A stretch of 64,000 bases of DNA. Origin: an uncultured Bacteroidales bacterium. GTDB lineage: Bacteria; Bacteroidota; Bacteroidia; Bacteroidales; VadinHA17. The notes below the pieces were generated by a model. That model ran no database searches and was not told where the DNA came from. It saw only the letters and a program-made list of their open reading frames with translations. Within the stretch, counting starts at the first letter, position 1. The number at the start of each line of letters is the position of its first letter. The stretch is from positions 10,145 to 74,144 of the forward strand of contig CAWHIG010000016.1 in assembly GCA_963829255.1 (NCBI GenBank), in the 5' to 3' direction. Below are positions 13,908 to 61,843 of the stretch, in pieces. The translations under genes were made by a program, and so were the position numbers.

Positions 13908-15309
13908 TCAAAGTTCATATTCCTGACCTTTGGCAGGTATTTCAATGTTTTTAAACCCTTCATCTGAAAGAGTCGAAACATACTTTTTCTGTGTCTCGTA
14001 CTCACCATGAACTATAAAAATCTTCGAGAGGCCGCTTTTATTCTGGCAACTTAAAAAGTTGACCATCTCCTTATAATCGCCGTGTCCGCTGAATGATTCG
14101 ATTTTTCTCACTTCAGCTTTTACTTCATAAACTGTTCCAAATATAGAGACTTCTCTATCACCTCTTCCTATCCTTGCTCCTAGTGTTGTTGGAGCACAAT
14201 ATCCTACAATAAGGATCGTATTGCGCGGATCAGAGATATTATTTGCCAGATGATGTTTTACCCGGCCGGCTTCCATCATACCTGAAGCGGAAATAATAAC
14301 ACACGGTTTTTTATGATCGTTGAGTTTTTTTGAATCCTCAACTTTAGTAATATAAAATAGATTTTCAAATCCAAAAGGATCGGGATCGTTTTGCAATACA
14401 TTAAGGAAATTCTGATTATAACACTCCGGATGCATTCTGAAAACAGTAGTTGCATTAACAGCAAGGGGACTATCTACAAAAATATCAATCCTGGGCAATT
14501 TGCCCTGATTAAAAAAGTTATTGAGTGAAAAAACGATTTCCTGTGTGCGGCCAACACTGAAAGCAGGGATTATAAGCTTCCCACCTTTATTTACACATGT
14601 ATTCACTACTACGTTCAGAAGCTCTTCTTCTGCCATCACTGTATCGTTATGTAGCCTGTCTCCATAAGTTGATTCAGTAATAAGGATTTCTGCCTGGGGG
14701 AAAGGCTTTGGAGGAGCAAGTATCTGATCAACCAGTCTGCCTATATCACCTGTATAAGCTATCTTTTTGATCTGCCCGTTTTCGGTGATCTGAAGATTTG
14801 CCACACCGCTGCCAAGCATATGGCCGGTATTTGTGAACTTAACTTTTACGTTTTCATCAACCCTGAAATTCATTTCATATGGTACACCGATAAAGAGTTT
14901 CATACAGGCTGTTGCATCAGCCTGTGTATAAATAGGTTCCACCGGTCGCAAGTCCCTTTTTAACTCTGCGTTTATTGAAAGTCAATGTATCATGCTCCTG
15001 AATAAAAGCAGAATCAGCCAGCATTATAGCACAAAGGTCACGGGTTGCATTAGAACAGATCACCGATCCCCTGAAACCAAGCTTATAAACATAAGGTATC
15101 AGTCCTGAATGATCTATATGGGCATGGGTAAGAATAATATGATCAATCTGAGACGGATCAAACATAAGGTCTCTGTTCATACCATCTGTTTCCAGGCCTT
15201 TTCCCTGGAACATGCCGCAATCAAGAAGTATTTTTTTCCCTGAATCTGTGGTAATAAGATGTTTGCTTCCTGTTACTTCTCTTGCAGCACCTATAAATTT
15301 TATTATCAT
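13908..15309 (-). pseudogene. MBL-fold beta-CASP family hydrolase (RNA-metabolising type), split by one frame shift
   Basis: ORF 14917..15309 carries HAHIDHSG. ORF 13908..14951 continues the family. The frames overlap at 14917-14983, and ...RVKKGL then PVEPIYTQADA reads through if one base near 14946 is removed. Confidence 0.8.
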
Positions 15310-15396
15310 TTTTGTTTCAATTTAATGTTTAAAGATAGCGAATATATTCCAGAAAAGAGAAGGGCGTTGGGCAACGTGCGTCGCAAAAGAGGCAAT

Positions 15397-18300
15397 TTAT
15401 ATCCTCACACCCAGAATTGTAACATCGTCAATCTGATCTGCAGAGCCTTTCCATGTTTCGAACTCACTCTCCAGTATTCTATGTTGTTCAGCCATAGGCC
15501 TGTAGTAGATCTCCGTAATAAGTTTCTTCAGGTTATATTTCATGTATTTGGACATATATGGTCCGCCAAACTGATCAGCGAATCCATCTGTAAATATGTA
15601 GATTGTATCTCCTTTTTGTACATTGATCTCGTAATTAGTGAAAGTATCCTTTTCACCATAGTAAATACCTATTGGCATCCTGTCGCCTCTGTATTCCTTG
15701 AACTCTCCTCCCTGGAAAATGAAGAGCGTATTATAAGCTCCGGAAAATTCAAGTATTTTCCTGTCCTTATGCAGGATGCAAAAGGCTACATCCATACCAT
15801 CATTGGCTTCTCCCTCTTTGCCGGTCTGGTGCATAGACGTTTTAATCTTTTCACGCAACAGATTTAATACAGTATTTGCTTTAAGGTTTTCATTATTGGT
15901 GATTACCTCATCTAATGTTGATATCCCAAGCGTACTCATAAAGGCACCCGGAACGCCATGACCGGTACAATCGGCAACCGTAAAGTAAATATGTTTTTCA
16001 TCTTCACCGATCCAGTAGAAATCACCGCTTACAATATCACGGGGTTTAAATATTATAAAATATTCCGAAAATGAATCCCTGAAATGTTCAGACTCCGGAA
16101 GCATCGCCATCTGTATCCTGCTTGCATATTCAATACTTGAAGTAATCTCCTGTTTTTGAGCCTCAATTTCGGTAGTGCGCTCTTTTACCCTGGTCTCCAA
16201 TATCCGTTTGTCTTTTTTAAGCTGCCTTTCCCTGAATCTGATAACTCCTATTATTACAACCAGTATGGCACACACAACAACTATGTAAAAAAAGGTCGTT
16301 TGTGTAAAAGGCGCTTCAATAGCAAATCCAACCCTTTTGGGTTCACTTATGTTCCCCCATATATCTTTCGCCCTTACCTGAAGTATATATTTACCAGGCT
16401 TTATCATCAGGGTTATCGTATTGTCGTATGACCACTTTGACCATTCCGTCATAACCTTGTCAACAATATATTGATATTGAGTCGAATTCTTCTTAAGATA
16501 TCCAGGAGCTACCAGATCAAAATATACAGTATTATCTCCGCTTCCGAATACTATATCGGAAAAGCTGAAATTAATCCCTTTTGCATTGGAGATACTTCTG
16601 ATGAACAGGTTTATGTCTGTTTTTACGGAAGGAATTTTGTTGCGGACAATTCTGTAAAGCAGATTGTCTCCGCTGATAACCCAGATATTGTCTTTATCGG
16701 TATATATTGAATTAAGATTATCAAAAATTTTAAGAAGTGCCTTATCATTATAGTCAATTCTGCCTGCAGAACTGATATTGATCCATTCGTCTTCGGTCTT
16801 AACCCATGGAATTTCCTGCTGCGATAACACATATTTTATCCTTGCACTGTTATTTGAAAATTCCTTTCTGTATTCTTTAAAGGAATCAAGATTACTGTCA
16901 TAATAACTGACACCTGATAATGTAAAAGCAAATATCGTATCGTTAACATATTCAACTATATACCTCTGTGGCAAATTACTAATACTATACACTTTGGTAT
17001 TCCCGGAAAAGATTCCGTTTTCAAGACTTATTCTGAACAGGATATCATCGCTCCCTGCCCAGATAGTATTCTCATCCGTTGATACTATTGAATAGAGTGG
17101 ATGTGTAAATGTTTTATCGGGATAAACTGCCACCCAACCATTCTTATTATCATGTGTGATATAAAAGTAACCGTCTGTCGTGGCCACATAGTACTTGTTA
17201 TCCCTTGATTTTGAACTAATGTTATTAATATACCTGTTACTTACAACAGCTTTGGCAACGTGGCCTGAAATAATATAAAGGCCTCTGTTTGTTGAAGCAA
17301 GAATATCATTTCCGGCAGAGATCATCTGCTTACATTTTTCATTCAGTCCATCAATTTTGGTATATACATAATTAATTGATTTGAGTCTGCCGGCTACCTT
17401 TTTGAAATATTTTGGTTCCGGTAACCTGATTGCCGGAGGAGTAATTATTTGCACTGGTTGTTCCTGAACAACCGGTGCCACCGGCTTCTTTCCAAATATT
17501 CTGGATAAAATACCTTTCCTTGTTTTCTGTGGCTCCGGAGTTACCTGTTGAACTGGCTTGTTCTGGATTACCGGCTGGATTGGCTTTTCAACTACTTCTT
17601 CATTTTTTACAAGTACCTCTACCTGAGCATATTTTTTAACTTCTTTCAGATAAAACACTCCCTCACTCGTTGCTACATATAATTCATTATTATGCCAGAG
17701 TGAGGCAATGAGGTTGCCCTTCAGTCCCGGATAAATGCTGAAATTGCCGACCGGTAATCGCAAATCTGCACGCGTAAGCCCATACTGATGGGAAAACCAC
17801 AGACCATAATTGTTATCACATCCCCAGTGCAAAAATTTCATCATCGGGTAATCCATTTATATAATTGATCGCATATTTTAGTTTCCCGTTCTGCTTTTCA
17901 ACAACCAGAGCTCCTCCATCAAGAGTTGAAAATGCATATAGACTGTCAGATATTAATAACCCGTCCGACAGAATATTTTGCCGGAGATAACCTTCATCCT
18001 TTATAGGGTAATCATAGAATTTTATCCCGTCAAAAAGAGAAAGTTCTCCATTGCTTTTTCCTAAAAGTACAAGATTCTTGTTATAGGGAAGACTGAAAAG
18101 GATCTCCTCATTTTCAAGCATATAACCAGTAACAATAGGGAACAAGGTATCACTTTCAAGCCTGTAGAGTCCTTTTGACAGAGACATTTATGAAGGTATT
18201 TTTAGGAGTAATAAACATCCCCGTGAAAGGTCTGTTTCCTTTCGGTCTGAGTCGTAATTCAAACTTTTCTGACTTTAAATTATGCCTGCTGATACTTTGT

Positions 18301-18707
18301 TCCCCGTAAAAATAAACAGTTGAATCAGTAAGAATTATTCTGGATATCAGTCCTACTGAGGATGAATCGCCTGAAATAGAATAGTATCTGTAAATACCCA
18401 TCTCATCCCTGGCCAGATATCCGTAATTGTTATCACCACCGACATATACTTTTCTATCCAGAGGGCTGTATTTAAGTGAATAAGGAATTGTAGGCATCGG
18501 AATAAAATTCCAGCCCTGGCCGTCAAAAGTGAGAATACCACGCCGGTTGGCAAACAGCATTACATTGTTATCATCCTGACAGATAGCCCAGCTCGGATTT
18601 TCTATCTCAATGCTTTCCTTAAAATTAGTTAGCAAAGGTGCGCCTTGCTGAGCCCCAAGAGCATAAACAATAAGTAAAAAAGAAACCAGTAAAAGTGCCT
18701 TTTTCAT
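15397..18707 (-). pseudogene. Periplasmic beta-propeller/Y_Y_Y sensor fused to a cytoplasmic SpoIIE (PP2C) phosphatase; split by two frame shifts
   Basis: Three consecutive ORFs: 18156..18707 (signal peptide), 17816..18187 and 15397..17856. They contain propeller-like repeats, a Y_Y_Y-like segment (KPGKYILQVRAKDIWGNIS), one TM helix, a coiled coil and SpoIIE motifs (SGDFYW, ADCTGHGVPGAFMS). The breaks sit in a T4 run (18183-18186) and a C4 run (17823-17826). Confidence 0.8.
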
Positions 18708-18802
18708 GCGTATCGATTCTCAGATTGATCAGCCTCTTTTCTGAAGTTAAAAGTATAAGAAAAAATTCAGAAACTAACAAGTCCGAAGCAGGAATTCTGA
18801 AG

Positions 18803-38923: not shown

Positions 38924-41296
38924 TTATACTTCTTCATGCTCAGTCCTCCTGATTATCTCATTCTGCAGATCCTCTCCAAGATCGTTGAAATAATCACTGT
39001 AACCTGCCACACGAACAATAAGGTCCCTGTATCGCTCCGGATGTAATTGCGCATCCTTCAGAGTTTGCACATTAACTACATTAAACTGAATATGATGACC
39101 ATCCAGACTGAAATAGCTGCGGATCAACGCCGTAAGCTTTTCATAACTCTCCTCATCTTCAAAAAAGGATGGAGAAAACTTTTGATTTAACAGGGTGCCT
39201 CCTGTTCTGAAGATGGTCAATCTTTGAGGCTGATTTAATGACAGATGTCGGGCCTTCATGATCAACACCCTGAAAAGGTGAAATACCTTCTGAAAGAGGC
39301 AGATAAGCATTCCGGCCATCAGCAGTGGCACCGATAACACTTCCAAAATAGACATGAGAAGTTGTAGGCAGCATATTTATACGGTGGACTCCCCCTCTCG
39401 AATTTGGCTGGCCATTAACCGCATCATAATAGATCTCAAAGACTGTAACTGCCTGTTGATCTGCATAATCATCATCATTGCCGAACTTGGGTGTTTCATA
39501 TACTATCTGGTACTGAATCTGTTCGTACCCTTTGAAATCTGCATCAAGAGCTTTGTTAAACTCTTCCCAGCTAAATGTTTTGTTATCATAAATATTATAA
39601 CGGATTGATGTAAGCATGTCGGTGATACTTCCCAGACCAACACCCTGAATATATGAAGTATTGTAACGTGGCTCCGCCACTATTGTAATCCCTGCCGTTG
39701 GAAATACAATCTTCTACCAGTAAAGATAAAAATGGTACTGGCAACCAATCGGCAAACGTCTTTTCAATAACATTGTTACCCTTTATCTTAATCGCAGCGA
39801 GGTAATTTACCTGCAGTTTAAATGCTTCAATGACATCTTCAAAAGTCTTGTAGTCGTTAGAGTTACCAGTCTTCAGCCCGACAAGTTGATTAGTCCTCCT
39901 GTCATATCCGTTGTTAAGAGTCAGCTCCAGAACTTTCGGAAGATTGAAGTACCCTGTCAGCCAGTATGCCTCCGTACCGAAAGCTCCGGTTTCAACACAG
40001 CCCGATGCACCACCGTTCCGGGCATCAATTATATTTTTCCCCTGCCTGAGCAGTTCCTCGATTATTGCATCTGTATTGAAGCATGAAGGTTGGCCGAATC
40101 CGGTTTTTATTATATCAAGTGCCTTATGAATAAATCTGTCAGGACTGCCTTTGGAGATCTGTATCATCGAACTGGGCTGAAGTATCCGCATCTCCTTTAT
40201 GACATCAAGAAGAATATAGGACATCTCATTAACTGCATCGGTACCATCAGGTTTCACTCCACCAAGATTAATAAGACAAAAGTCGGTGTAGGTATTGCTT
40301 TCACTTGCTGTTACACCCATTTTTGGTGGTGAGGGATGATTATTGAATTTTACCCAGAAACAGCCAAGAAGATCATCGAGTTCACACTCGGAAAGCGTAC
40401 CGGACTGCTGTTTCCCTTTTATAAACCGGATAAAGATGCTGATCGAGTCTGCCCGGATTAAAAGAGTCCCAGGGATTTAGTTCAGTTATAACCCCCAGAT
40501 GTATGAACCAGTAATGCTGAAGCATTTCATGAACAGTCTCGGGAGCATAGGCAGGAACTTTGCGACATACGGCTGCCATCTTTATCAACTCCTCTTTTCT
40601 TTCCGAATCTTTCTCCTCTGCGGTAAGCTTATCCAGCTCATCGGCATGACGATTCGCGTACATTATTATTGCATTGCACGTAATATTCATTGCTCTGAGC
40701 TCCTCCATCTTTTCGTATGCCTGGCTGTCAGTAAAAAAATTAAGAGCCTCAATAGCCTCGCTTATCTCCTCTTTTACAGCCAGAAACCCTGTTTTAAACA
40801 TTCTGTAACCCAATACTGTATGTCCGGGGGCGCGCTGTTCCTGGAATTCAGTAAACACGCCTGCATTATAGGCATTCAGCCATTCAGTTGTCATCAGTGA
40901 CATTATCCTGTCGCGGTTGCTGTTCCCTTTCCAGAAGGGAATAATTTCCTTTTCATAAATGTTCTTCACCTCATCATCTACTCTGAAGAAGACTTTTTCC
41001 CTTGAATCAAGGATCGCAAGATCCTTCAGGGAATGAAGGCTTATTTCAGGATAGGTTGGAGTTTCCTTTGGCGCCGGCCCTCTCTCCCCTACTATCAGTT
41101 CGCCTTCGTTGATGCAAATTTTCTTATTCTTCAGAAGATATTCAAAAGCCTTTGCCCTTTTAACAGGGGCTGACAATTCACCTGCTTCATCACTCTTATA
41201 AAACTCTGTGATAAGCAATGCTCTCTCTGCGCTTATCTTTTCGACTGCATTCAGGCTCTGATCTCTTAATTTTTTAACTCTTTCTGATAAAATCAT
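38924..41296 (-). pseudogene. Glycyl-radical enzyme (PFL superfamily, GCVE eliminase-type active site), split by three frame shifts
   Basis: Four consecutive ORFs (40382..41395, 39595..40320, 39159..39680, 38924..39355) together give about 790 aa. The catalytic loop is GGASGCVETGA and the glycyl-radical motif is VRVAGYSDYF. Breaks are near 40417-40420 (T4), about 39670 and about 39205. The likely start is the Met at 41296. Confidence 0.85.
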
Positions 41297-41328
41297 AACT
41301 ATACAATTACTGATTTCAAATATTATGT

Positions 41329-41462: not shown

Positions 41463-42264
41463 TCATCCCCCGATTTTTACCTTAATTCCTGTCTCCTCGA
41501 AAAATATCTTTATTTTCTGCATTTTCCCCTTGTCAGGCGGCTCAACTCCCTCCATCCTGTAAGGAATATTGAATCTTTTATATTTAGAAGACCCTATCTT
41601 ATGAAATGGCAAGAGATTGATCTTTTTAACCGAACTGGTTTTTGTCTCTGTAATGAACTGTTTCAGTTTCTCAAGATGATCCTGATCGTCATTAAATCCC
41701 GGAACAACAGGTATCCGTACCATAACGTCCTTTCCGCTATTTATTAAAAGCCGGTAATTATCCAGTATTCCTAGAATTAGAAACTCCTGTGGATTCCAAA
41801 TGCTTCGCTTCATCAAGATGCTTTATATCGAAGAGGAAAAGGTCAGTGAACGGAATGATTGATTTAAAATTCTCAGCTGAGGAATATCCCGAAGTATCAA
41901 CAGCTGTATGATATCCATTTGACTTACAGGTCATTAAAGCTTCACGAAGGAATTCAATCTGTACCATCGGTTCTCCTCCTGAAAATGTAATTCCACCTCC
42001 TGATTGATTAATGAAAACTTTCTCTTTATCAAGGATCTCAATAATGCTTTCAGTTGAATAATATTTCCCAACCTCCTCGCTCTTACTGAATTCCTTGTCA
42101 CCGATTCTGTTCGTCCGGATCACAGTTTCCTGTGAAGAAGATATCCCTTCCGGATTATGGCACCACATGCAGCTCAGAGGGCATCCCTTCATGAAAAATG
42201 TCACCCTTATCCCCGGACCATCATGGATGGAATATTTTTTAACGCTGAAAATGAGTCCTTTCAT
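41463..42264 (-). pseudogene. Glycyl-radical enzyme activating protein (radical SAM), split by one frame shift
   Basis: ORF 41758..42264 has GCPLSCMWCHNPE (CxxxCxxC). ORF 41463..41816 continues the family. The break is near 41776 (...TGVSN then LGILDNYRLL). Confidence 0.8.
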
Positions 42265-54105: not shown

Positions 54106-54777
54106 TCAATCTATTGTAAGATCAGCAAGTCCTTCTTTATCAAATATATGTATGTTTTTCCCCTTTGCTTCAATATATCCGTCTGCTTCCATAACACTAA
54201 GTGCTCTAGCAACAGAAGGCCGTGCAACGCCAAAAAACTCAGCAAGATCGCTCTGTGTCATATTCAGGTTGACTGAGCTTAATTCCTGTCCTGCTTTTTG
54301 AAGGATGTAATGCGCCAGTTTCCCCTTTATCGTTTTAAAATTCAGGAATTTTATTTTCTCGGAAAGGAACTGGGAACGGTTTGAAATCATATCCAGGTAA
54401 TTTACCAGGATAATGTCATTCTTCATTAATAATTTAAGAAAATAGGGCTTTTCAATCAGAAGCATTTCAATATCGGTAATCGCAACCACATTCACAGGAA
54501 ATTTGTTCCTGCTTCCAAAGATGAACGCAGGAGCAATAGCGCCGGGTGCAGGAATATCCTCAATTTTTATTACCCTGCCGGTATAATCGACCATTTCGCC
54601 CTTCACTGCTCCTTTTGTTACAACCATCAGTGAATTAACCGGTTCTCCGCTTTGAGATATTATTGAACCTGCTTGAAATTTTTTAATCCTGTTGGGTACA
54701 CTCTTAAGAATTATTTCAATTTCATCAGGGGAAATTCCCTTGAATAAAGGAGCATTTGAGAGAAGTGAATAATCCAT
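54106..54777 (-). CDS. Crp/Fnr-family transcriptional regulator
   Basis: 223-aa ORF with a cNMP-binding-like beta-roll and a C-terminal HTH (TQSDLAEFFGVARPSVARALSVMEADGYI). Confidence 0.85.
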   Translation of the reverse strand: MDYSLLSNAPLFKGISPDEIEIILKSVPNRIKKFQAGSIISQSGEPVNSLMVVTKGAVKGEMVDYTGRVIKIEDIPAPGAIAPAFIFGSRNKFPVNVVAITDIEMLLIEKPYFLKLLMKNDIILVNYLDMISNRSQFLSEKIKFLNFKTIKGKLAHYILQKAGQELSSVNLNMTQSDLAEFFGVARPSVARALSVMEADGYIEAKGKNIHIFDKEGLADLTID

Positions 54778-55000
54778 TTTTTTATTTCAAAAGTAGTAAA
54801 TAACTCCAGTAACTATAGGTTTTCCGAAGTTTATAACCTCATCCCCCTCGCCTCCTTCTCCCGAGACTAATCTTTATACACATCTTTTTTTATTTAGCTC
54901 CAAAGAGCTGAATGTGAATAATCCCCGGCTTCTGTGAGGGGCTAATCATATTATAATCTGCAGCTATGAAGGAGCTGAATATAGGAATTATTAATAAGAT

Positions 55001-55176
55001 TGGAGATTCCTCGCTCCGCTCGGAATGACACGTCATTTCCTGGTCAAAGGGTGGAAGAAGCGGCGAGTCGGTTGCAGATTATTGATATAGAATTGATTCA
55101 TAAACCGAATCGCCGCTTCTTCCACCCATACATGCTACATGTCAATTGTCATTCCGAGCGGAGCGAGGAATCTCCA
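55001..55176. repeat. 176-nt nested perfect inverted repeat (MITE-like / long hairpin)
   Basis: The outer arms are 30 nt and perfect: tggagattcctcgctccgctcggaatgaca (55001-55030) / tgtcattccgagcggagcgaggaatctcca (55147-55176). The inner arms are 18 nt and perfect: gggtggaagaagcggcga (55049-55066) / tcgccgcttcttccaccc (55110-55127). The inner arms extend to 25 nt with one mismatch. Confidence 0.9.
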
Positions 55177-55404
55177 AGGGATAAGACTATGCTAATAAAA
55201 AAAGATCCCTTCAAACAAACGATCTTATAATCAGCTACCAACTCATGGAGATGTGTATAAAGATTAGCTTCAAAAGGAGAGCCTGCCCCGCTTTTGGCGG
55301 GGGGGAACTTTTTTATGCAGTATCTCCCTCTTCTCCAATGCTTATATTGACAGCGATGGAGTTTGAGGACAAACATCAAAAAGGGAAGAGAAATTGCTCT
55401 ATTT

Positions 55405-55420
55405 TGTAACATATGTTACA
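55405..55420. promoter_or_regulatory. Perfect 16-bp palindrome TGTAACATATGTTACA, candidate Crp/Fnr-family operator upstream of the Fe-S protein gene
   Basis: The sequence is self-complementary, 56 nt upstream of the ATG at 55476. It has TGTNA-N6-TNACA geometry, like CRP-family sites, and lies in the divergent region next to a Crp/Fnr gene. Confidence 0.5.
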
Positions 55421-56415: not shown

Positions 56416-59400
56416 ATGGTACCTGAATATTCTCTCTCCGGATTACCTGATTCCAAATATTTTCTTGGTATTGACATTGGCTCAGTCTCTATTAACACAG
56501 CTGTAATCGACGAGAACAATAATATCCTGGAAGAATATTATGATTATGTGCATGGAAGGCCTTTTAATGTTTTGAAAGATAGATTATCTTCTGTCCTTGA
56601 AAAACATCCTGCTGAAACGATCAGGGGAATTGCAATTACCGGTTCAGGCGGAAAGCTTGCCACAGAGTTGATAGGAGGGGTTTTTGTAAATGAGATTATT
56701 GCACAGGCGACTTCAACCGGAATACTATATCCCGAAGCCAGGACAGTAATCGAAATAGGTGGAGAAGATTCTAAACTTATTATTCTGGAGAAGGACCCTG
56801 AAAACGGACACTCCAGACTGGTTGATTTTGAAATGAACAGTATTTGTGCCGCAGGAACTGGTTCATTTCTCGACCAACAGGCAAGAAGGATTGGCGTACC
56901 AATTGAGAACGAATTTGGTATCATGGCGCTCAGATCGGTTGATCCTCCAAGGATAGCTGGTCGTTGCAGTGTTTTTGCAAAAAGCGATATGATCCATCAT
57001 CAACAGATAGCAACACCCCTGCATGATATAGTAGCCGGATTATGCTTTGCATTAGCCAGAAATTTTCGGAGCAATGTTGCAAGAAGTAAAGAGATCATAA
57101 AACCAGTCGTTTTTTCAGGAGGAGTTGCAGCAAATATAGGAATGGTAAGGGCTTTCAGGGAGACATTAAACCTCGCTGAAGGTGAACTTATTATACCGGC
57201 TCATCATGCTGCCATGGGGGCAATCGGCGCTGTATATTATGCCTGTGCAAATAAACTGGATATGAACCATTTCTCCGGTATTATCCAAACTTGAGGAATA
57301 TCTTGCGGGAACTACAACCGAATTTGTCAGCCTTCCTCCCCTTAAGGAATCTCTGGCAGAATATAGAAAAAAGGTTCATTTCATCAGAAACGGCGAAGAG
57401 AAAGTACGTGTCTACCTGGGACTGGATATCGGTTCTCTCAGTACAAATGTGGTATTGATTGATGAAAAGCATCGTGTAGTGGCAAGACGCTACCTGCCCA
57501 CGGCAGGGAAACCCCTGGAAGCAATCCAGAAAGGAATGACAGAAATATTCGACGAAGTTGGTGAAGAGGTCATCGTACTGGGAGCTGGTACTACAGGCTC
57601 GGGACGTTACCTTACCGGTGATTTTATTGGTGCCGACAATATCGTTAATGAAATTACAGCTCAGGCAACCGCTGCGATTGACTTCGATCCGACAGTTGAC
57701 ACAATTTTTGAAATCGGCGGACAGGATTCCAAATATATTAGCATAGAAAATGGTGTAGTAGTAGATTTTGAAATGAACAAAGTATGCGCTGCCGGTACAG
57801 GTTCATTTCTTGAAGAGCAGGCAGAAAAGCTGAATATCAATATTGTTGAGGAATTCGGATGCATGGCGCTGAATTCTGAATCACCGGTAAAACTGGGTGA
57901 CAGATGCACTGTATTTATGGAATCTGATCTGAACTCATTCATGCAAAAAGGGGCCAGAAACGAAAATCTGGTCGGTGGCCTCGCTTATTCAATCGTTTAT
58001 AATTACCTTCAAAAGGTAGTCGGTGACAGGCGGATAGGCAATAAGATTTTCTTTCAGGGTGGAGTTACAAACAATAAAGCAGTAGTTGCCGCATTCGAGC
58101 AGGTAGTAGGTAAGAGTATTATTATACCTCCTCATTTTGACGTCACCGGAGCTATAGGAGCTGCTATCCTGGCCAAAAGATCAATGGTTGAAGGTCAAAA
58201 AACCCGATTCAAAGGCTTTGATGTACGAAATGCTACTTACAAGGTCAGCAGATTTGTATGTCAGGGTTGTACTAACCATTGTGAGATCAGACGTGTAAAA
58301 ATAGCCGGAGAAAAGAAATCTCTTTATTATGGTGGCCGTTGCGAAAAGTATGAAACCGACGATAGAAAAAACATAATAAATAATATCCCAAATCTTTTCA
58401 CAAAAAGAACCGAAATGTTGATGGAAGGCTTTGTGGAAAAAGAATCATGGAAATCAACTTCGATTGGAATTCCAAGAGCTCTTATGGTGTTCTACCAGCA
58501 ATTTCCCTTCTGGAGGACATTTTTTGAACAACTTGGATTTACGGTGGTAATTTCAAAAGAATCGGATAAATCTCTGATGACAAAGTCCATTGAGACAATA
58601 ACAGCTGAGACTTGTCTTCCGGTAGAAATGATGCATGGTCATGTAATAGATCTTATAGAGAAGGGTGTCGACTTTATTTTTCTTCCTTTCATAGTTAATG
58701 GTAAACAAAAGGAAGGAAACAATACATTTAACTGTAACTGTCCCTGGGTGCAGACCTATCCTTTTATGATAAAAGCTGCCCTTCGGGGAAAAGTTGATGA
58801 ATCAAAACTCCTTATACCCACACTTCATTTCAGGTTCTTCGAAAGAGCTCTCATAAAGGAGATGACTGAATATTTCAATGAGAAATTCGGAATTGATAAA
58901 TCAGAAATCAGAAGAGCGGTAATCTTTGCTGATAAGGTACAGGTGTCATTCGAAAAACGACTTATTGATTACGGTAAAGAAGTCCTGAGTTCTATTCCTG
59001 AAAACTGCCGTCCGGTTGTGCTTTTGGGAAGACCTTATAACAGCACGGATCAGCATCTTAACCTGGGACTCATAGAAAAGCTAATAAACCAGAATGTTAT
59101 GCCGATACCTCTGGATATGCTTGATCTGTCGCCATATAATATTTTTACAAACTACCGCAATATGTACTGGCCTAACGGACAAAAACTTATTGCAGCAGCA
59201 CAGTTTGTTGCAAAAAATGAAAAGTTCCATGCAGTATATATCAGCAACTTCCGATGCGGACCCGACTCTTTTATCTGGCATTATGTTACAGAAGAGCTTA
59301 AAGGCAAGCCTTTTCTTCATCTCGAGATTGATGAGCATTCCGCCGATGCCGGAATGGTAACACGTATCGAAGCTTTTCTTGATAGTCTGAAAGGATCGGA

Positions 59401-60673
59401 GAAAAACGAAAAGAAGGAAGTGACAGTATTCCGCCCACGTCCAAGTCCCGCCTCACCCCAAAAAGACAGGGTTATGTATTTTCCGTATATGCATGATGGT
59501 GCCTATCTGATTGCTGCTGCTGCCCGAAGTTGCGGAATAGCCTCCGAAGTACTTCCAAAACAGACCGAAGAAGACCTTGCTATCGGAAGAAAATACACCT
59601 CATCAAAAGAGTGTTTTCCAATGATCTGTACAACCGGAAGTTTTCTCAGAAAACTTATGGAGCCAGGGGCCGATCCTTCAAAAATGAGTTTTTTTATGCC
59701 CGATCATAATGGTCCGTGCCGGTTTGGTCAGTATAACCAGTTTCAAAGGATTCTTTTTGACAGACTTGGGTTTCATAAGGCAGAACTTATAACCCCATCA
59801 AATGATACATCATACGAAGATGTTGCCGGGGAACATGGACAAAAATTCAGGATCAACGCGTGGAAAGGATTCGTAGTTGCCGATTACCTGCATAAAATTC
59901 ACAGGGAAACCCGGCCCTACGAATTAAACAAGGGAGATTCAGACAAACTCTATCAGGATTCATTATCCCGACTTGAAAGATGCATCGAAAATGGTTCAAG
60001 TGGCCTGCATAAAACTCTGGTAGGAATTGCTTTTGATTTTATGGCTATAAAGGTTGATAAAAGTGAAAGAAAACCAGTGGTTTCACTGGTGGGTGAAATA
60101 TTCATGCGCGACAATGCAGCCTGCAACGGTAATATCTCAAACCGGCTGGAAGATCTTGGCGTTGAAGTGGTTGTTGCTCCATTTTCTGAATGGATTTCAT
60201 ACTCTACTTATCGTTTCACCCGTGACAGCAGGTGGAAGAATGATAAAACAGGAATATTGAAATCAAGAATTCAGGCAATTGGGCAGGATGCAATTGCTGC
60301 CTCACTTCTCCGGGGTATTGAAAAATTTACAGATCACGAAAAAGATGTATCTCTTCACGATATGCTGAGTTTGTGCAATAAGTATGTGAATGAATTTTAT
60401 GACGGGGATCCGCCTGTGGCAATAGGTACATCTATGGCACTCACAAAGAGAGGGGTATCAGGTATTGCTGCCATTCTGCCATTTACATGCATGCCGGGAA
60501 CAGTTGTTGCTGCCGTCAGCGATACATTCAGAAAAGACCATAATAATATTCCATTTATTAATGTTGCTTATGATGGTCAGGATTCTGTATCACTCGATAC
60601 CAGGCTTCAGGCTTTTGTTTTCCAGGTTAAGGAGTTTACTTTGGCAAGGGCTAAAACACCGGTAGTCATTTAA
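56416..60673 (+). pseudogene. Large CoA-substrate-specific enzyme activase-like protein: two BcrAD/BadFG ATPase domains + dehydratase-like/DUF2229 region; split by one frame shift
   Basis: ORFs 56416..57294 and 57449..60673. The second frame is open back to 57266 and reads ...KLEEYLAGTTTEFVSLPPLKESLAEYRKKVHFIRNGEEKVRVYLGLDIGSLSTNVVLID, so one indel at 57266-57294 fuses them into about 1419 aa. The duplicated motifs are GIDIGSVS / GLDIGSLS, ICAAGTGSFL / VCAAGTGSFL and GRCSVFAKSD / DRCTVFMESD. Confidence 0.8.
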
Positions 60674-60712: not shown

Positions 60713-61843
60713 TCAACTTTTAAGTCTGAATCCAATATTCTCCAACATCTGTTTAACTTCTTTAGTCCCTCCTTTCAGGTCAACTGTATATGAGGAAAAC
60801 TCTCTCCTGATCCGATAATCGCCCCGAAGTTTTTCAAATTCGGTTGGAGAATGGATGAGATTTGCTTTATCTTCCTCAATATTATAAGTATGTAACACAG
60901 CTTCCCTTACTATTTCTTCTTCAGATTTACCCTTGCAATCAATTGATATATAAGGAGAAAAAGGAAGGGGAACATTCTCCGGATACCAGTTTTTTGGAGG
61001 AAGATTGAAAAATCTGCTTACTGCACTTACCACCATCGCGGTAGAATTGGCTTTACCATCCGTGGAGTATCCGGCAATATGAGGAGTTGCAATAAAAGCC
61101 ATTTGCATAAGTTCCACATCTATATCCGGTTCATTTTCCCATACATCCAATACTGCTCCGCCCACTTTACCTGAATAAAGTACTTTCTTAAGCGCAAACG
61201 TATCCGTCACCTCACCACGTGAAGTATTAACAAACCATGCTCCCCTTTTAATCTTTTTAAAACTTTCGTCATTAAAAAGATGATAGGTATAATCTTCCCC
61301 AACAACATTCAGAGGTACATGAACTGTGACTATATCAGATTGAGAGAGCACTGTCCTTAGGCTATGAAAGTTTTTTTTGCCCTCCAGCCTGGCCCTGGGA
61401 GGGTCGTTCAGAAGAATATTCATTCCTAATGCGCGGGCAAACTTCTCTACCTTTGAACCTACATTGCCAACACCAACGATTCCCAATGTTTTGTCCTTTA
61501 GTTTAAAGTTGTGTTCAGATGATATCCTTACCAGCGCTGCTGCTATATATTGCTGAACTGATGACGAGTTAGAACCCGGTGCATTTGTCCACAGGATATT
61601 CTTCCTATTGCAGTAATGTGTATCGATATGATCAAATCCTATTGTAGCCGTACCTATAAACCTGACGCTTGTCCCTTCCAGGAGATTTTCAGTACATTTT
61701 GTTCTTGTGCGTATCAGCAGGGCATCAGAATCCTTAAGTATTTCTTTGTCGATCTGTTTTCCAGGAATATAGACAACTTCTGCATGAGGTTCGAGTGCTC
61801 CCTTCAGAAAAGGAATTTTATCATCGGCAACAATCTTCATCAC
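60713..61843 (-). CDS. pdxB: 4-phosphoerythronate dehydrogenase
   Basis: 376-aa ORF. It has a D-2-hydroxyacid dehydrogenase fold (GIVGVGNVG) with the PdxB-type N-terminus MKIVADDKIPFLKGALEP and an extra C-terminal dimerisation domain. Confidence 0.8.
   Translation of the reverse strand: MMKIVADDKIPFLKGALEPHAEVVYIPGKQIDKEILKDSDALLIRTRTKCTENLLEGTSVRFIGTATIGFDHIDTHYCNRKNILWTNAPGSNSSSVQQYIAAALVRISSEHNFKLKDKTLGIVGVGNVGSKVEKFARALGMNILLNDPPRARLEGKKNFHSLRTVLSQSDIVTVHVPLNVVGEDYTYHLFNDESFKKIKRGAWFVNTSRGEVTDTFALKKVLYSGKVGGAVLDVWENEPDIDVELMQMAFIATPHIAGYSTDGKANSTAMVVSAVSRFFNLPPKNWYPENVPLPFSPYISIDCKGKSEEEIVREAVLHTYNIEEDKANLIHSPTEFEKLRGDYRIRREFSSYTVDLKGGTKEVKQMLENIGFRLKS

Follow-up and report, generated by a model that had tools for sequence, protein, structure and literature searches.

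The window, that is, the whole 64,000-nt stretch of DNA analysed here, comes from an uncultured wetland/soil Bacteroidales, and we consider it probable that it carries an intact gene for a single-chain ether-lipid synthase of the PlsA/PlsR-Ger family, whose reading frame is broken by an insertion error of the assembly. This assignment builds on the architecture of the protein, its cysteine conservation, fold and phylogenetic position, and on the pattern of artefacts in the assembly; substrate, electron path and product are proposed below by analogy. In the sequence as given, two open reading frames lie one frame apart, 56416..57294 (292 aa) and, from stop to stop, 57266..60673 (1135 aa), and overlap at 57266-57294. 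Ignoring A57283 fuses both at GGT ATT [A57283] TCC into one protein of 1418 aa (window 56416-60673, plus strand). The single long protein that the first-pass annotation obtained after one frame correction therefore stands, except for its length of 1419 aa, which included the stop codon.

Features of the enzyme gene and its neighbours (window coordinates)
Feature	Position	Strand	Basis or remark
Crp/Fnr regulator, divergent; cNMP_binding + HTH_Crp_2	54106-54777	-	
Perfect palindrome TGTAACATATGTTACA, GTAAC-N4-GTTAC	55405..55420	.	matches HcpR2 consensus GTAACnnnnGTTAC
Fer4 ferredoxin-like gene; N-terminal 2x[4Fe-4S] motif, C-terminal PF27217 (AF_0155)	55413/55476-56255	+	
Enzyme gene, 5' part; Act1 (BcrAD_BadFG ~56464-57243), cluster Cys C144 and C184	56416..57282	+	Pfam, 1HUX alignment, family alignment
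Single extra A, placement +/-1, shifts frame	57283	+	absent from 9/9 congeners and L108; genome-wide insertion pattern
Inter-domain linker and Act2 (BcrAD_BadFG ~57416-58174), Cys C457 and C497	57284..58174	+	Pfam, family alignment
Four-Cys linker CxxCxxxC...C (C615, C618, C622, C642)	58259..58342	+	family alignment
Reduction domain 1 (Red1): DUF2229 58463-59122, weak HGD-D-like tail 59153-59389; C733, C775, C947	58463..59389	+	Pfam, fold matches, family alignment
Reduction domain 2 (Red2), PlsR equivalent of two-gene systems; C1066, C1101, C1358	59468..60673	+	Fusobacterium split, model, alignment
Stop codon of enzyme gene	60671-60673	+	
PdxB	60713-61843	-	

Two tandem BcrAD/BadFG ATPase domains had been read from the sequence in the first-pass annotation, which named Pfam as the check, and Pfam bears them out, with one BcrAD_BadFG match in the first piece (residues 17-276, E 7e-34) and one in the second (residues 51-303, E 6.5e-40); TIGR00241 scores above its cut-off in both. 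These are followed in the second piece by DUF2229 at residues 400-619 (E 1e-63) and by HGD-D at residues 630-708, which stays sub-threshold (22.7 bits vs a cut-off of 28.4 bits). The predicted cysteine motifs, ICAAGTGSF/GRCSVF and VCAAGTGSF/DRCTVF, are each present in the protein, as is the Cys-rich linker CQGCTNHCEIRRV. In a residue-level alignment, made for Act1 only, its two cysteines align to the cluster ligands Cys127 and Cys166 of HgdC (structure 1HUX), and both Cys motifs of Act2 are 100% conserved in the family alignment of 158 sequences. All four bridging cysteines are kept in 158/158 aligned members, which supports the idea, already put forward from the sequence, of a pseudo-dimeric double activase. 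Altogether, 14 cysteines are conserved in 93-100% of the 158 family sequences and in 100% of 14 PlsA-clade sequences, so that the cofactor cysteines are common to the window protein and the named proteins of the Listeria/Fusobacterium/Collinsella clade. The four linker cysteines, kept in 93-94% of the 158 members, form a candidate extra Fe-S or metal site in a stretch of low pLDDT within an AF2 model of pLDDT 83.4.

The C-terminal half, earlier described as dehydratase-like, is indeed related to dehydratase/reductase subunits, as judged from the AF2 model and its fold matches in the PDB. The best of these were BzdNO, the 2-hydroxyisocaproyl-CoA dehydratase HadBC and MbdO, each with a probability of 1.0 (Foldseek 8s02_B/A, 3o3m_B and 9gai_A; target-normalised TM 0.40-0.51). 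A sequence profile of this half found no relative in the PDB; kinship with HAD/BCR catalytic subunits is thus clear by fold but weak by sequence alone. When compared with DCCP, the ATPase matched the DCCP reductase 7yyl_E, and DCCP chains were absent from the significant fold matches of the C-terminal half. The family version from Fusobacterium is split in two (975+404 aa). Red1 and Red2 did not align significantly with each other by hhalign (probability 1%, E 0.05); the third Cys motifs of both were paired in this non-significant alignment.

In the window protein, a single chain carries two activation domains, then DUF2229 and another reductase-like domain; by Pfam, BcrAD_BadFG x2, DUF2229 and weak HGD-D reproduce the published Ger/PlsA architecture. 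Reportedly, PlsA/PlsR was described as the anaerobic plasmalogen synthase by Jackson in 2021. The first-pass annotation was mistaken in stating that this fusion has no assigned substrate: the BB-DUF2229 fusion family is PlsA/PlsR-Ger, for which a lipid function has been demonstrated by heterologous expression, namely the formation of vinyl or alkyl ether lipids from sn-1 esters (PMC13159169, PMC12838417, PMC9702350, PMC10191378). Ger denotes glycerol ester reductase, and a BBDH... architecture has been described for Ger/PlsA (PMC13159169); single-gene plsA of 4.2-4.9 kb led to plasmalogen formation in E. coli (PMC12838417). According to the literature, homologues occur in about 15% of Bacteroidota, B. 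thetaiotaomicron is a plasmalogen maker, and PlsA and Ger are not separable by sequence, there being no diagnostic motif. PF09989 was detected in the control genomes of B. thetaiotaomicron, T. maritima and L. lactis. The putative product of the window enzyme would accordingly be either a vinyl ether (plasmalogen) or an alkyl ether. Databases still call this widespread fusion “acyl-CoA dehydratase activase”; since the family is one of anaerobic ether-lipid synthases, its members should no longer be flagged as orphans.

The family comprises ATP-dependent, oxygen-sensitive iron-sulfur enzymes of the BCR/HAD type; acting on membrane glycerolipids in anoxia, they reduce the sn-1 acyl ester to a vinyl ether or a saturated alkyl ether. 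In a mechanism modelled on HAD/BCR and on that published for PlsA, Act1 and Act2 would form an intramolecular pseudo-dimer bridged by a single [4Fe-4S] cluster on C144/C184 and C457/C497, which would be reduced by cellular ferredoxin or flavodoxin. ATP hydrolysis would then push a low-potential electron into two three-Cys clusters, those of Red1 and Red2, possibly by way of the 4-Cys linker; there the ester carbonyl may be reduced and dehydrated.

Among known systems, the closest in layout are PlsA/PlsR (C. perfringens CPE1194/1195, the single-gene PlsA of E. faecalis, L. cremoris and B. longum, and the Listeria orthologue), with which the window protein shares the order Act1-Act2-Red1-Red2, a length of ~1415 aa, all 14 conserved cysteines, a stand-alone gene and the BCR/HAD-type fold of the C-terminal half. 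It differs from them by belonging to another well-supported clade and by an identity of only 29% to the proteins of Listeria, Fusobacterium and Collinsella; furthermore, a Bacteroidales PlsA-type copy exists, but is absent from this genome. To the Ger enzymes Tmari_0479 of T. maritima and SHJ90043 of D. alkenivorans the window protein can be likened by description rather than by sequence: these have a BB-DUF2229-HGD-D type architecture and belong to a family of strict or facultative anaerobes from many phyla, including the FCB group, and the wider tree group of the window protein holds Planctomycetota and Deltaproteobacteria proteins. With 2-hydroxyacyl-CoA dehydratases and class I benzoyl-CoA reductases, and their activators HgdC/BcrAD, it shares the ASKHA ATPase with two cluster-bridging cysteines and the three-Cys-cluster catalytic halves (Foldseek tops 8s02, 3o3m, 9gai). 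In contrast to those systems, it fuses all modules in one chain with an extra 4-Cys linker, and its family acts on an ester of a membrane lipid instead of an acyl-CoA.

A statistical reading of the frame shift makes A57283 a probable assembly insertion error. The extra base is absent at the junction in all nine congeners checked, whose frames are open (1418-1439 aa), 11 same-genus genomes have one frame each (1418-1440 aa), and homologues with 96-97% identity likewise have an intact single frame. Relative to a 91.6%-identical relative (L108, GCA_936407825.1), whose intact gene encodes 1418 aa, it is the sole indel over 4258 nt, and the codon differences, 269 synonymous to 63 nonsynonymous, keep a ratio of ~4:1 before the shift (62:16) as well as after it (207:47). 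Furthermore, 8/48 syntenic genes are frame-broken in this assembly, among them rpoB (98.6% aa identity), and 12/12 of these breaks are 1-nt insertions, which in coding sequence occur about once every 6 kb. No motif is common to the 12 insertion sites, and programmed +1 frameshifting was therefore rejected. Were the shift genuine, the gene would be a very recent strain pseudogene yielding at most a free Act1 ATPase. The extra base is, after all, present in the given sequence, no ATG/GTG/TTG precedes the Act2 phosphate-binding motif (the first such start being GTG 57449), congener G012 has a split frame as well, and the genus can do without the gene, as 5/18 congeners lack it. We nevertheless regard a genuine shift as improbable, given the same +1-nt insertions in rpoB and seven other syntenic genes, the unchanged substitution ratio after the shift, and 1135 downstream codons free of a second indel or a stop. 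The shift matches the genome-wide 1-nt insertion errors and gives no grounds for calling the gene inactive; if the insertion is an assembly error, as we suppose, the organism itself most likely has an intact enzyme gene. A rate of roughly one spurious insertion per 6 kb should also temper “pseudogene” readings elsewhere in this genome.

Domain annotation confirmed the stand-alone gene with ferredoxin-like and Crp/Fnr neighbours, and dehydratase, reductase or CoA-transferase genes were absent from the annotated neighbours of the enzyme. The probable true start of the Fer4 gene is ATG 55476, which lies on the same strand as the enzyme, with 160 nt between the two genes. A rival reading that extends the first-pass annotation is an orphan ATP-driven low-potential reductase with a non-lipid substrate, its own ferredoxin and Crp/Fnr control. 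We consider this very improbable. Its appeal comes from the short same-strand distance with no terminator-like site in between, from synteny of the trio in 8/10 congeners and at ~40 of ~58 loci at >=70% identity among the matches listed, and from a Paraclostridium homologue that likewise adjoins a divergent Crp/Fnr gene. However, lipid substrates have been demonstrated for the family, and Fer4 is absent from all listed loci at 55-60% identity, where neighbourhoods vary. Among congeners, Fer4 is present without the enzyme in G002, G011, G013 and G014, and the enzyme without Fer4 in G009, G010 and G015; since their phyletic distributions differ, the ferredoxin was ruled out as an obligate partner. 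Nor is the Fer4 gene a conserved partner: it adjoins the enzyme in part of one lineage only.

Rather than obligate partners of the ether-lipid synthase, Fer4 and the Crp/Fnr gene look like a separate HcpR2/FrdX-type unit, in which a Crp/Fnr regulator is accompanied by a predicted GTAACnnnnGTTAC-type operator upstream of its target gene. This sequence is the nitrosative-stress operator consensus of HcpR2, whose usual targets are hcp and frdX (PMC1274295), which also speaks against the orphan-reductase reading. The regulator contains no cysteine and is therefore not an FNR-type cluster sensor of oxygen; it is a candidate HcpR2-type protein. As in the HcpR2-FrdX unit (Rodionov 2005), it is divergent from the ferredoxin-like gene and the operator matches exactly, but the window lacks hcp in the 14 kb examined, and the likeness, with its putative FrdX kinship, concerns the neighbours and not the enzyme. 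The Fer4 protein is possibly FrdX-like, a lineage-restricted neighbour. The palindrome is kept at the same place in 8/8 congeners having the Fer4 gene.

PlsA-type genes of named genera (Listeria, Collinsella, Fusobacterium, Haliovirga and Paraclostridium) were obtained by tblastn of a plasmid collection, and the search for homologous loci with a 3-sequence alignment covered the 80 closest Bacteroidales MAGs; proteins of T. maritima, D. alkenivorans, C. perfringens, E. faecalis and B. thetaiotaomicron lie outside this sample, and no characterised enzyme stands beside the window protein. The window clade (support 1.0) is apart from the clade of Listeria, Fusobacterium, Collinsella and Bacteroidales PlsA-type proteins (support 1.0). 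The common Bacteroidales PlsA-type groups with Listeria PlsA at 39-41% identity, whereas the window protein reaches 29% with its counterparts from Listeria, Fusobacterium and Collinsella, and by tree and identity falls outside the canonical PlsA orthologous group. By sequence, it is thus a separate Bacteroidales lineage. MAG labels in the tree clades comprise Bacteroidales, Brocadiia, Planctomycetota, Deltaproteobacteria DG_8, Aminicenantes, Zixibacteria and Aerophobetes.

This position raises the possibility, which we rate as doubtful though worth weighing, that the window protein is a functionally distinct PlsA paralogue, a Ger-type maker of alkyl ethers instead of a plasmalogen synthase, or one acting on another position or lipid class. 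Besides the separate clade and the siding of the common Bacteroidales type with Listeria PlsA, the window lineage occurs together with the PlsA type in G055 and G233 and with a third lineage in G079, G138 and G091. Its wider tree group holds Brocadiia/Planctomycetota and deltaproteobacterial proteins, and a “modified PlsA” is reported in the literature for two alkyl-ether producers, Ca. Kuenenia and D. alkenivorans; an HGD-D match follows DUF2229 in the window protein and in the representative from the Deltaproteobacteria, and is missing in Listeria and Collinsella. Conversely, the deep branches of the wider group are supported at 0-0.4 only, its taxon labels are not the characterised proteins, and the current inseparability of Ger and PlsA by sequence weighs against the distinction. 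More tentative still is the whole reading, in which at least three paralogous lineages of Bacteroidales ether-lipid synthases exist, with that of the window maybe distinct, Ger-type and possibly HcpR2-linked. If true, co-transcription with the HcpR2-controlled ferredoxin-like gene would tie ether-lipid formation to nitrosative stress, and such anaerobes would be unrecognised sources of environmental alkyl glycerol ether, possibly brGDGT-precursor, lipids. Which of the two products, plasmalogen or alkyl ether, each lineage makes is a question for bacterial lipid biology and for tracing anaerobic sources of those ether lipids that serve as palaeoclimate proxies. The window lineage itself was found in uncultured Bacteroidales from peat, fen, soil and sediment, sometimes alongside canonical PlsA.

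The two-domain activase fusion that the first-pass annotation had read through one frame correction was borne out: joining both frames gives a protein of 1418 aa. In Pfam, its first piece matches BcrAD_BadFG once, over the complete domain; its second piece matches BcrAD_BadFG again, then DUF2229 (E 1e-63) and, below threshold, HGD-D. Furthermore, both ATPase domains exceed the cut-off of the NCBIfam model TIGR00241 ('acyl-CoA dehydratase activase'), and every cysteine motif quoted earlier was found in the sequence. Here we use the domain names of PlsA-type proteins, Act1 and Act2 (activation) and Red1 and Red2 (reduction). In HgdC, Cys127 and Cys166 are the ligands of the bridging cluster, and the Act1 cysteines align exactly with this pair (alignment to 1HUX). 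The gene is single-copy in the window's genome, and its neighbours encode an M3 peptidase, a 7TMR-DISM histidine kinase, a divergent Crp/Fnr regulator, a 2x[4Fe-4S] ferredoxin-like protein (Fer4), PdxB, a coiled-coil ORF and Maf.

The earlier interpretation held in part as to architecture, but not as to novelty. The architecture described by Sahonero-Canavesi et al. comprises two PF01869 domains, PF09989 and small PF06050/PF09989 pieces. In the same work, the proteins of T. maritima and D. alkenivorans, formerly 'modified PlsA' and now named Ger, yield 1-O-alkyl glycerol ethers in E. coli, under anoxia only (PMC13159169). The anaerobic plasmalogen synthase of C. perfringens is PlsA/PlsR; in most bacteria the synthase is one gene of 4.2-4.9 kb, and E. 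coli makes plasmalogens when given the E. faecalis, L. cremoris or B. longum gene (PMC12838417). Since the PlsA/PlsR and Ger literature gives ether-lipid products, the statement that this fusion family has no assigned substrate is out of date; the database label is still 'acyl-CoA dehydratase activase'. Homologues occur in about 15% of sequenced Bacteroidota, and B. thetaiotaomicron, which makes PE plasmalogens, is one of 4 control genomes in which PF09989 was detected. From family membership, the window enzyme is predicted to make a vinyl or an alkyl ether, between which its sequence does not discriminate; by the field's own statement, Ger and PlsA are not yet separable by sequence.

Fourteen cysteines are kept throughout an alignment of 158 family members, the named PlsA clade included (table), and the 3+3 pattern of Red1 and Red2 fits two HAD-like clusters. 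The proposed dehydratase-like character of the C-terminal region was supported at the level of fold: the C-terminal 807 aa, as modelled by AlphaFold2 (pLDDT 83.4, pTM 0.83), significantly match only catalytic subunits in the PDB, those of benzoyl-CoA reductase (8s02), 2-hydroxyisocaproyl-CoA dehydratase (3o3m/3o3n) and methylbenzoyl-CoA reductase (9gai), a kinship barely visible from sequence alone. By analogy with HAD/BCR and the published PlsA scheme, the enzyme would share their electron path and chemistry.

Coordinates of features (window positions unless contig C16 of the window's genome is named; cysteines by residue number)
Feature	Location	Remarks
First ORF, 292 aa	56416-57294	+ strand
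Stop-free frame, 1135 codons	57266-60673	one frame off from first ORF
Conserved Cys, pseudo-dimer	C144/C184 + C457/C497	bridging cluster
Conserved Cys, linker	C615/C618/C622/C642	
Conserved Cys, Red1	C733/C775/C947	
Conserved Cys, Red2	C1066/C1101/C1358	
beta-CASP nuclease	13911-15321	frame-broken
SpoIIE-domain protein	15400-18719	2 breaks
Glycyl-radical enzyme	38936-41302	3 breaks
Activase of glycyl-radical enzyme	41466-42264	frame-broken
Hybrid kinase	C16:8836-9979	frame-broken
rpoB	C16:81465-85272	frame-broken; 98.6% aa identity, Pfam-confirmed
DsbD_2 protein	C16:100241-100871	frame-broken
Perfect 16-bp palindrome TGTAACATATGTTACA	55405-55420	55 nt before Fer4 start

The enzyme gene belongs to an already known family, of which the Bacteroidales paralogous lineage is a modestly interesting loose end. 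An exhaustive search of representatives gave 1746 clusters at E<=1e-30, and named genes came from tblastn of a plasmid collection that includes some mislabelled chromosomes: Listeria monocytogenes (1475 aa), Collinsella, Haliovirga, Fusobacterium (split, 975+404 aa, as in plsA-plsR) and Paraclostridium. In maximum-likelihood trees, built without proven Ger, C. perfringens or E. faecalis sequences, the first four form one clade (support 1.0) with Paraclostridium outside. The common Bacteroidales copy falls within this Listeria-type clade, being 39-41% identical to Listeria and 26-29% to the window protein, which belongs to a separate Bacteroidales clade (support 1.0) nested in a poorly resolved group of Brocadiia/Planctomycetota, Deltaproteobacteria, Zixibacteria and Aerophobetes proteins. 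The window lineage is carried by ~17 of 291 good Bacteroidales genomes and another lineage by ~55; the window lineage co-occurs with the PlsA type in genomes G055 and G233, and with a third lineage in G079, G138 and G091. The closest loci among the matches listed all belong to MAGs of uncultured Bacteroidales, recovered from fen, peat, soil and lake sediment.

In Bacteroidales (loci L114-L129 and L027; genomes G021-G305), the fused ether-lipid synthase comes in three or more paralogous lineages, namely the window's, the Listeria-like PlsA type and the third type (G079/G067/G138/G091), and a single genome can have two of them. The 109-kb Paraclostridium bifermentans plasmid pHD0315_2-2 (L110:2285-6922) encodes a 1282-aa member of yet another clade, adjoining a divergent Crp/Fnr regulator and with an ABC transporter downstream. 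In Collinsella aerofaciens, the PlsA-type gene is overlapped at its 3' end by a TetR/AcrR regulator gene (L111:6431-7120), which is reminiscent of E. faecalis, where a TetR is reported to lie upstream of pls.

The frame shift in the enzyme gene is very probably an artefact. All nine congeners checked at the junction have an uninterrupted frame (1418-1439 aa), metagenomic homologues of 96-97% identity are intact (1416-1418 aa), and DNA alignment with congeners places an extra base at 57283 (GGT ATT [A] TCC) in the window only. Against the nearest DNA relative (L108, GCA_936407825.1; 91.6% identity) this base is the sole indel over 4258 nt; the codon differences are 269 synonymous and 63 nonsynonymous, in like ratio on the two sides of the shift (62:16 upstream, 207:47 downstream). 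Moreover, of the 48 syntenic genes compared between this contig and the congener G010 (a SPRUCE peat MAG), all 200 aa or longer, 8 are frame-broken in the window's genome, the enzyme gene among them. All 12 frame-breaking events are +1-nt insertions in that genome, about one per 6 kb of coding sequence, with no common sequence motif among the 12 sites. This pattern is a signature of assembly error, and because a broken rpoB cannot be real, the insertions point to systematic errors in the assembly.

The Fer4 protein, proposed earlier as a possible electron donor, and the Crp/Fnr regulator do lie next to the enzyme, but the phyletic pattern of Fer4 does not track it. Fer4, which ends in a PF27217 (AF_0155) domain, directly precedes the enzyme gene in 8 of 10 congeners and, among the matches listed, at ~40 of ~58 loci of at least 70% identity and none of ~20 at 55-60%, where neighbourhoods vary; it occurs in four enzyme-less congeners and is missing from three with the enzyme. 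Its true start is probably ATG 55476, because the listed ORF start (55413) falls inside the palindrome TGTAACATATGTTACA. This palindrome, exactly kept in all 8 congeners with the Fer4 gene and present in only two perfect copies in the window's genome, matches the published HcpR2 operator consensus GTAACnnnnGTTAC; HcpR regulators usually target hcp and the ferredoxin-like frdX (PMC1274295). The Crp/Fnr regulator lacks any cysteine. The simplest reading is that Fer4 and the regulator form a separate nitrosative-stress unit, upstream of the enzyme gene by chance. Putative read-through from Fer4 into the enzyme gene is possible, as no terminator-like site was found in the 160-nt gap between them.

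The other perfect TGTAAC-N4-GTTACA, on contig C6 (133907-133944) and 22 nt from a near copy, is flanked by a second Crp/Fnr-like ORF (C6:133252-133908) on one side and a methyltransferase-like ORF (C6:134045-134887) on the other. In G010 (contig C17; L012:18349-18364), with no Fer4 beside the enzyme, the same palindrome precedes a DsbD_2-family gene by ~400 nt. Finally, the 640-nt Crp/Fnr-Fer4 spacer of the window contains a long nested inverted repeat (54990-55180; TTGGAGATTCCTCGCTCCGCTCGGAATGACA ... TGTCATTCCGAGCGGAGCGAGGAATCTCCAA), which may be an inserted MITE-like element, since this gap is just 17-40 nt in two congeners.
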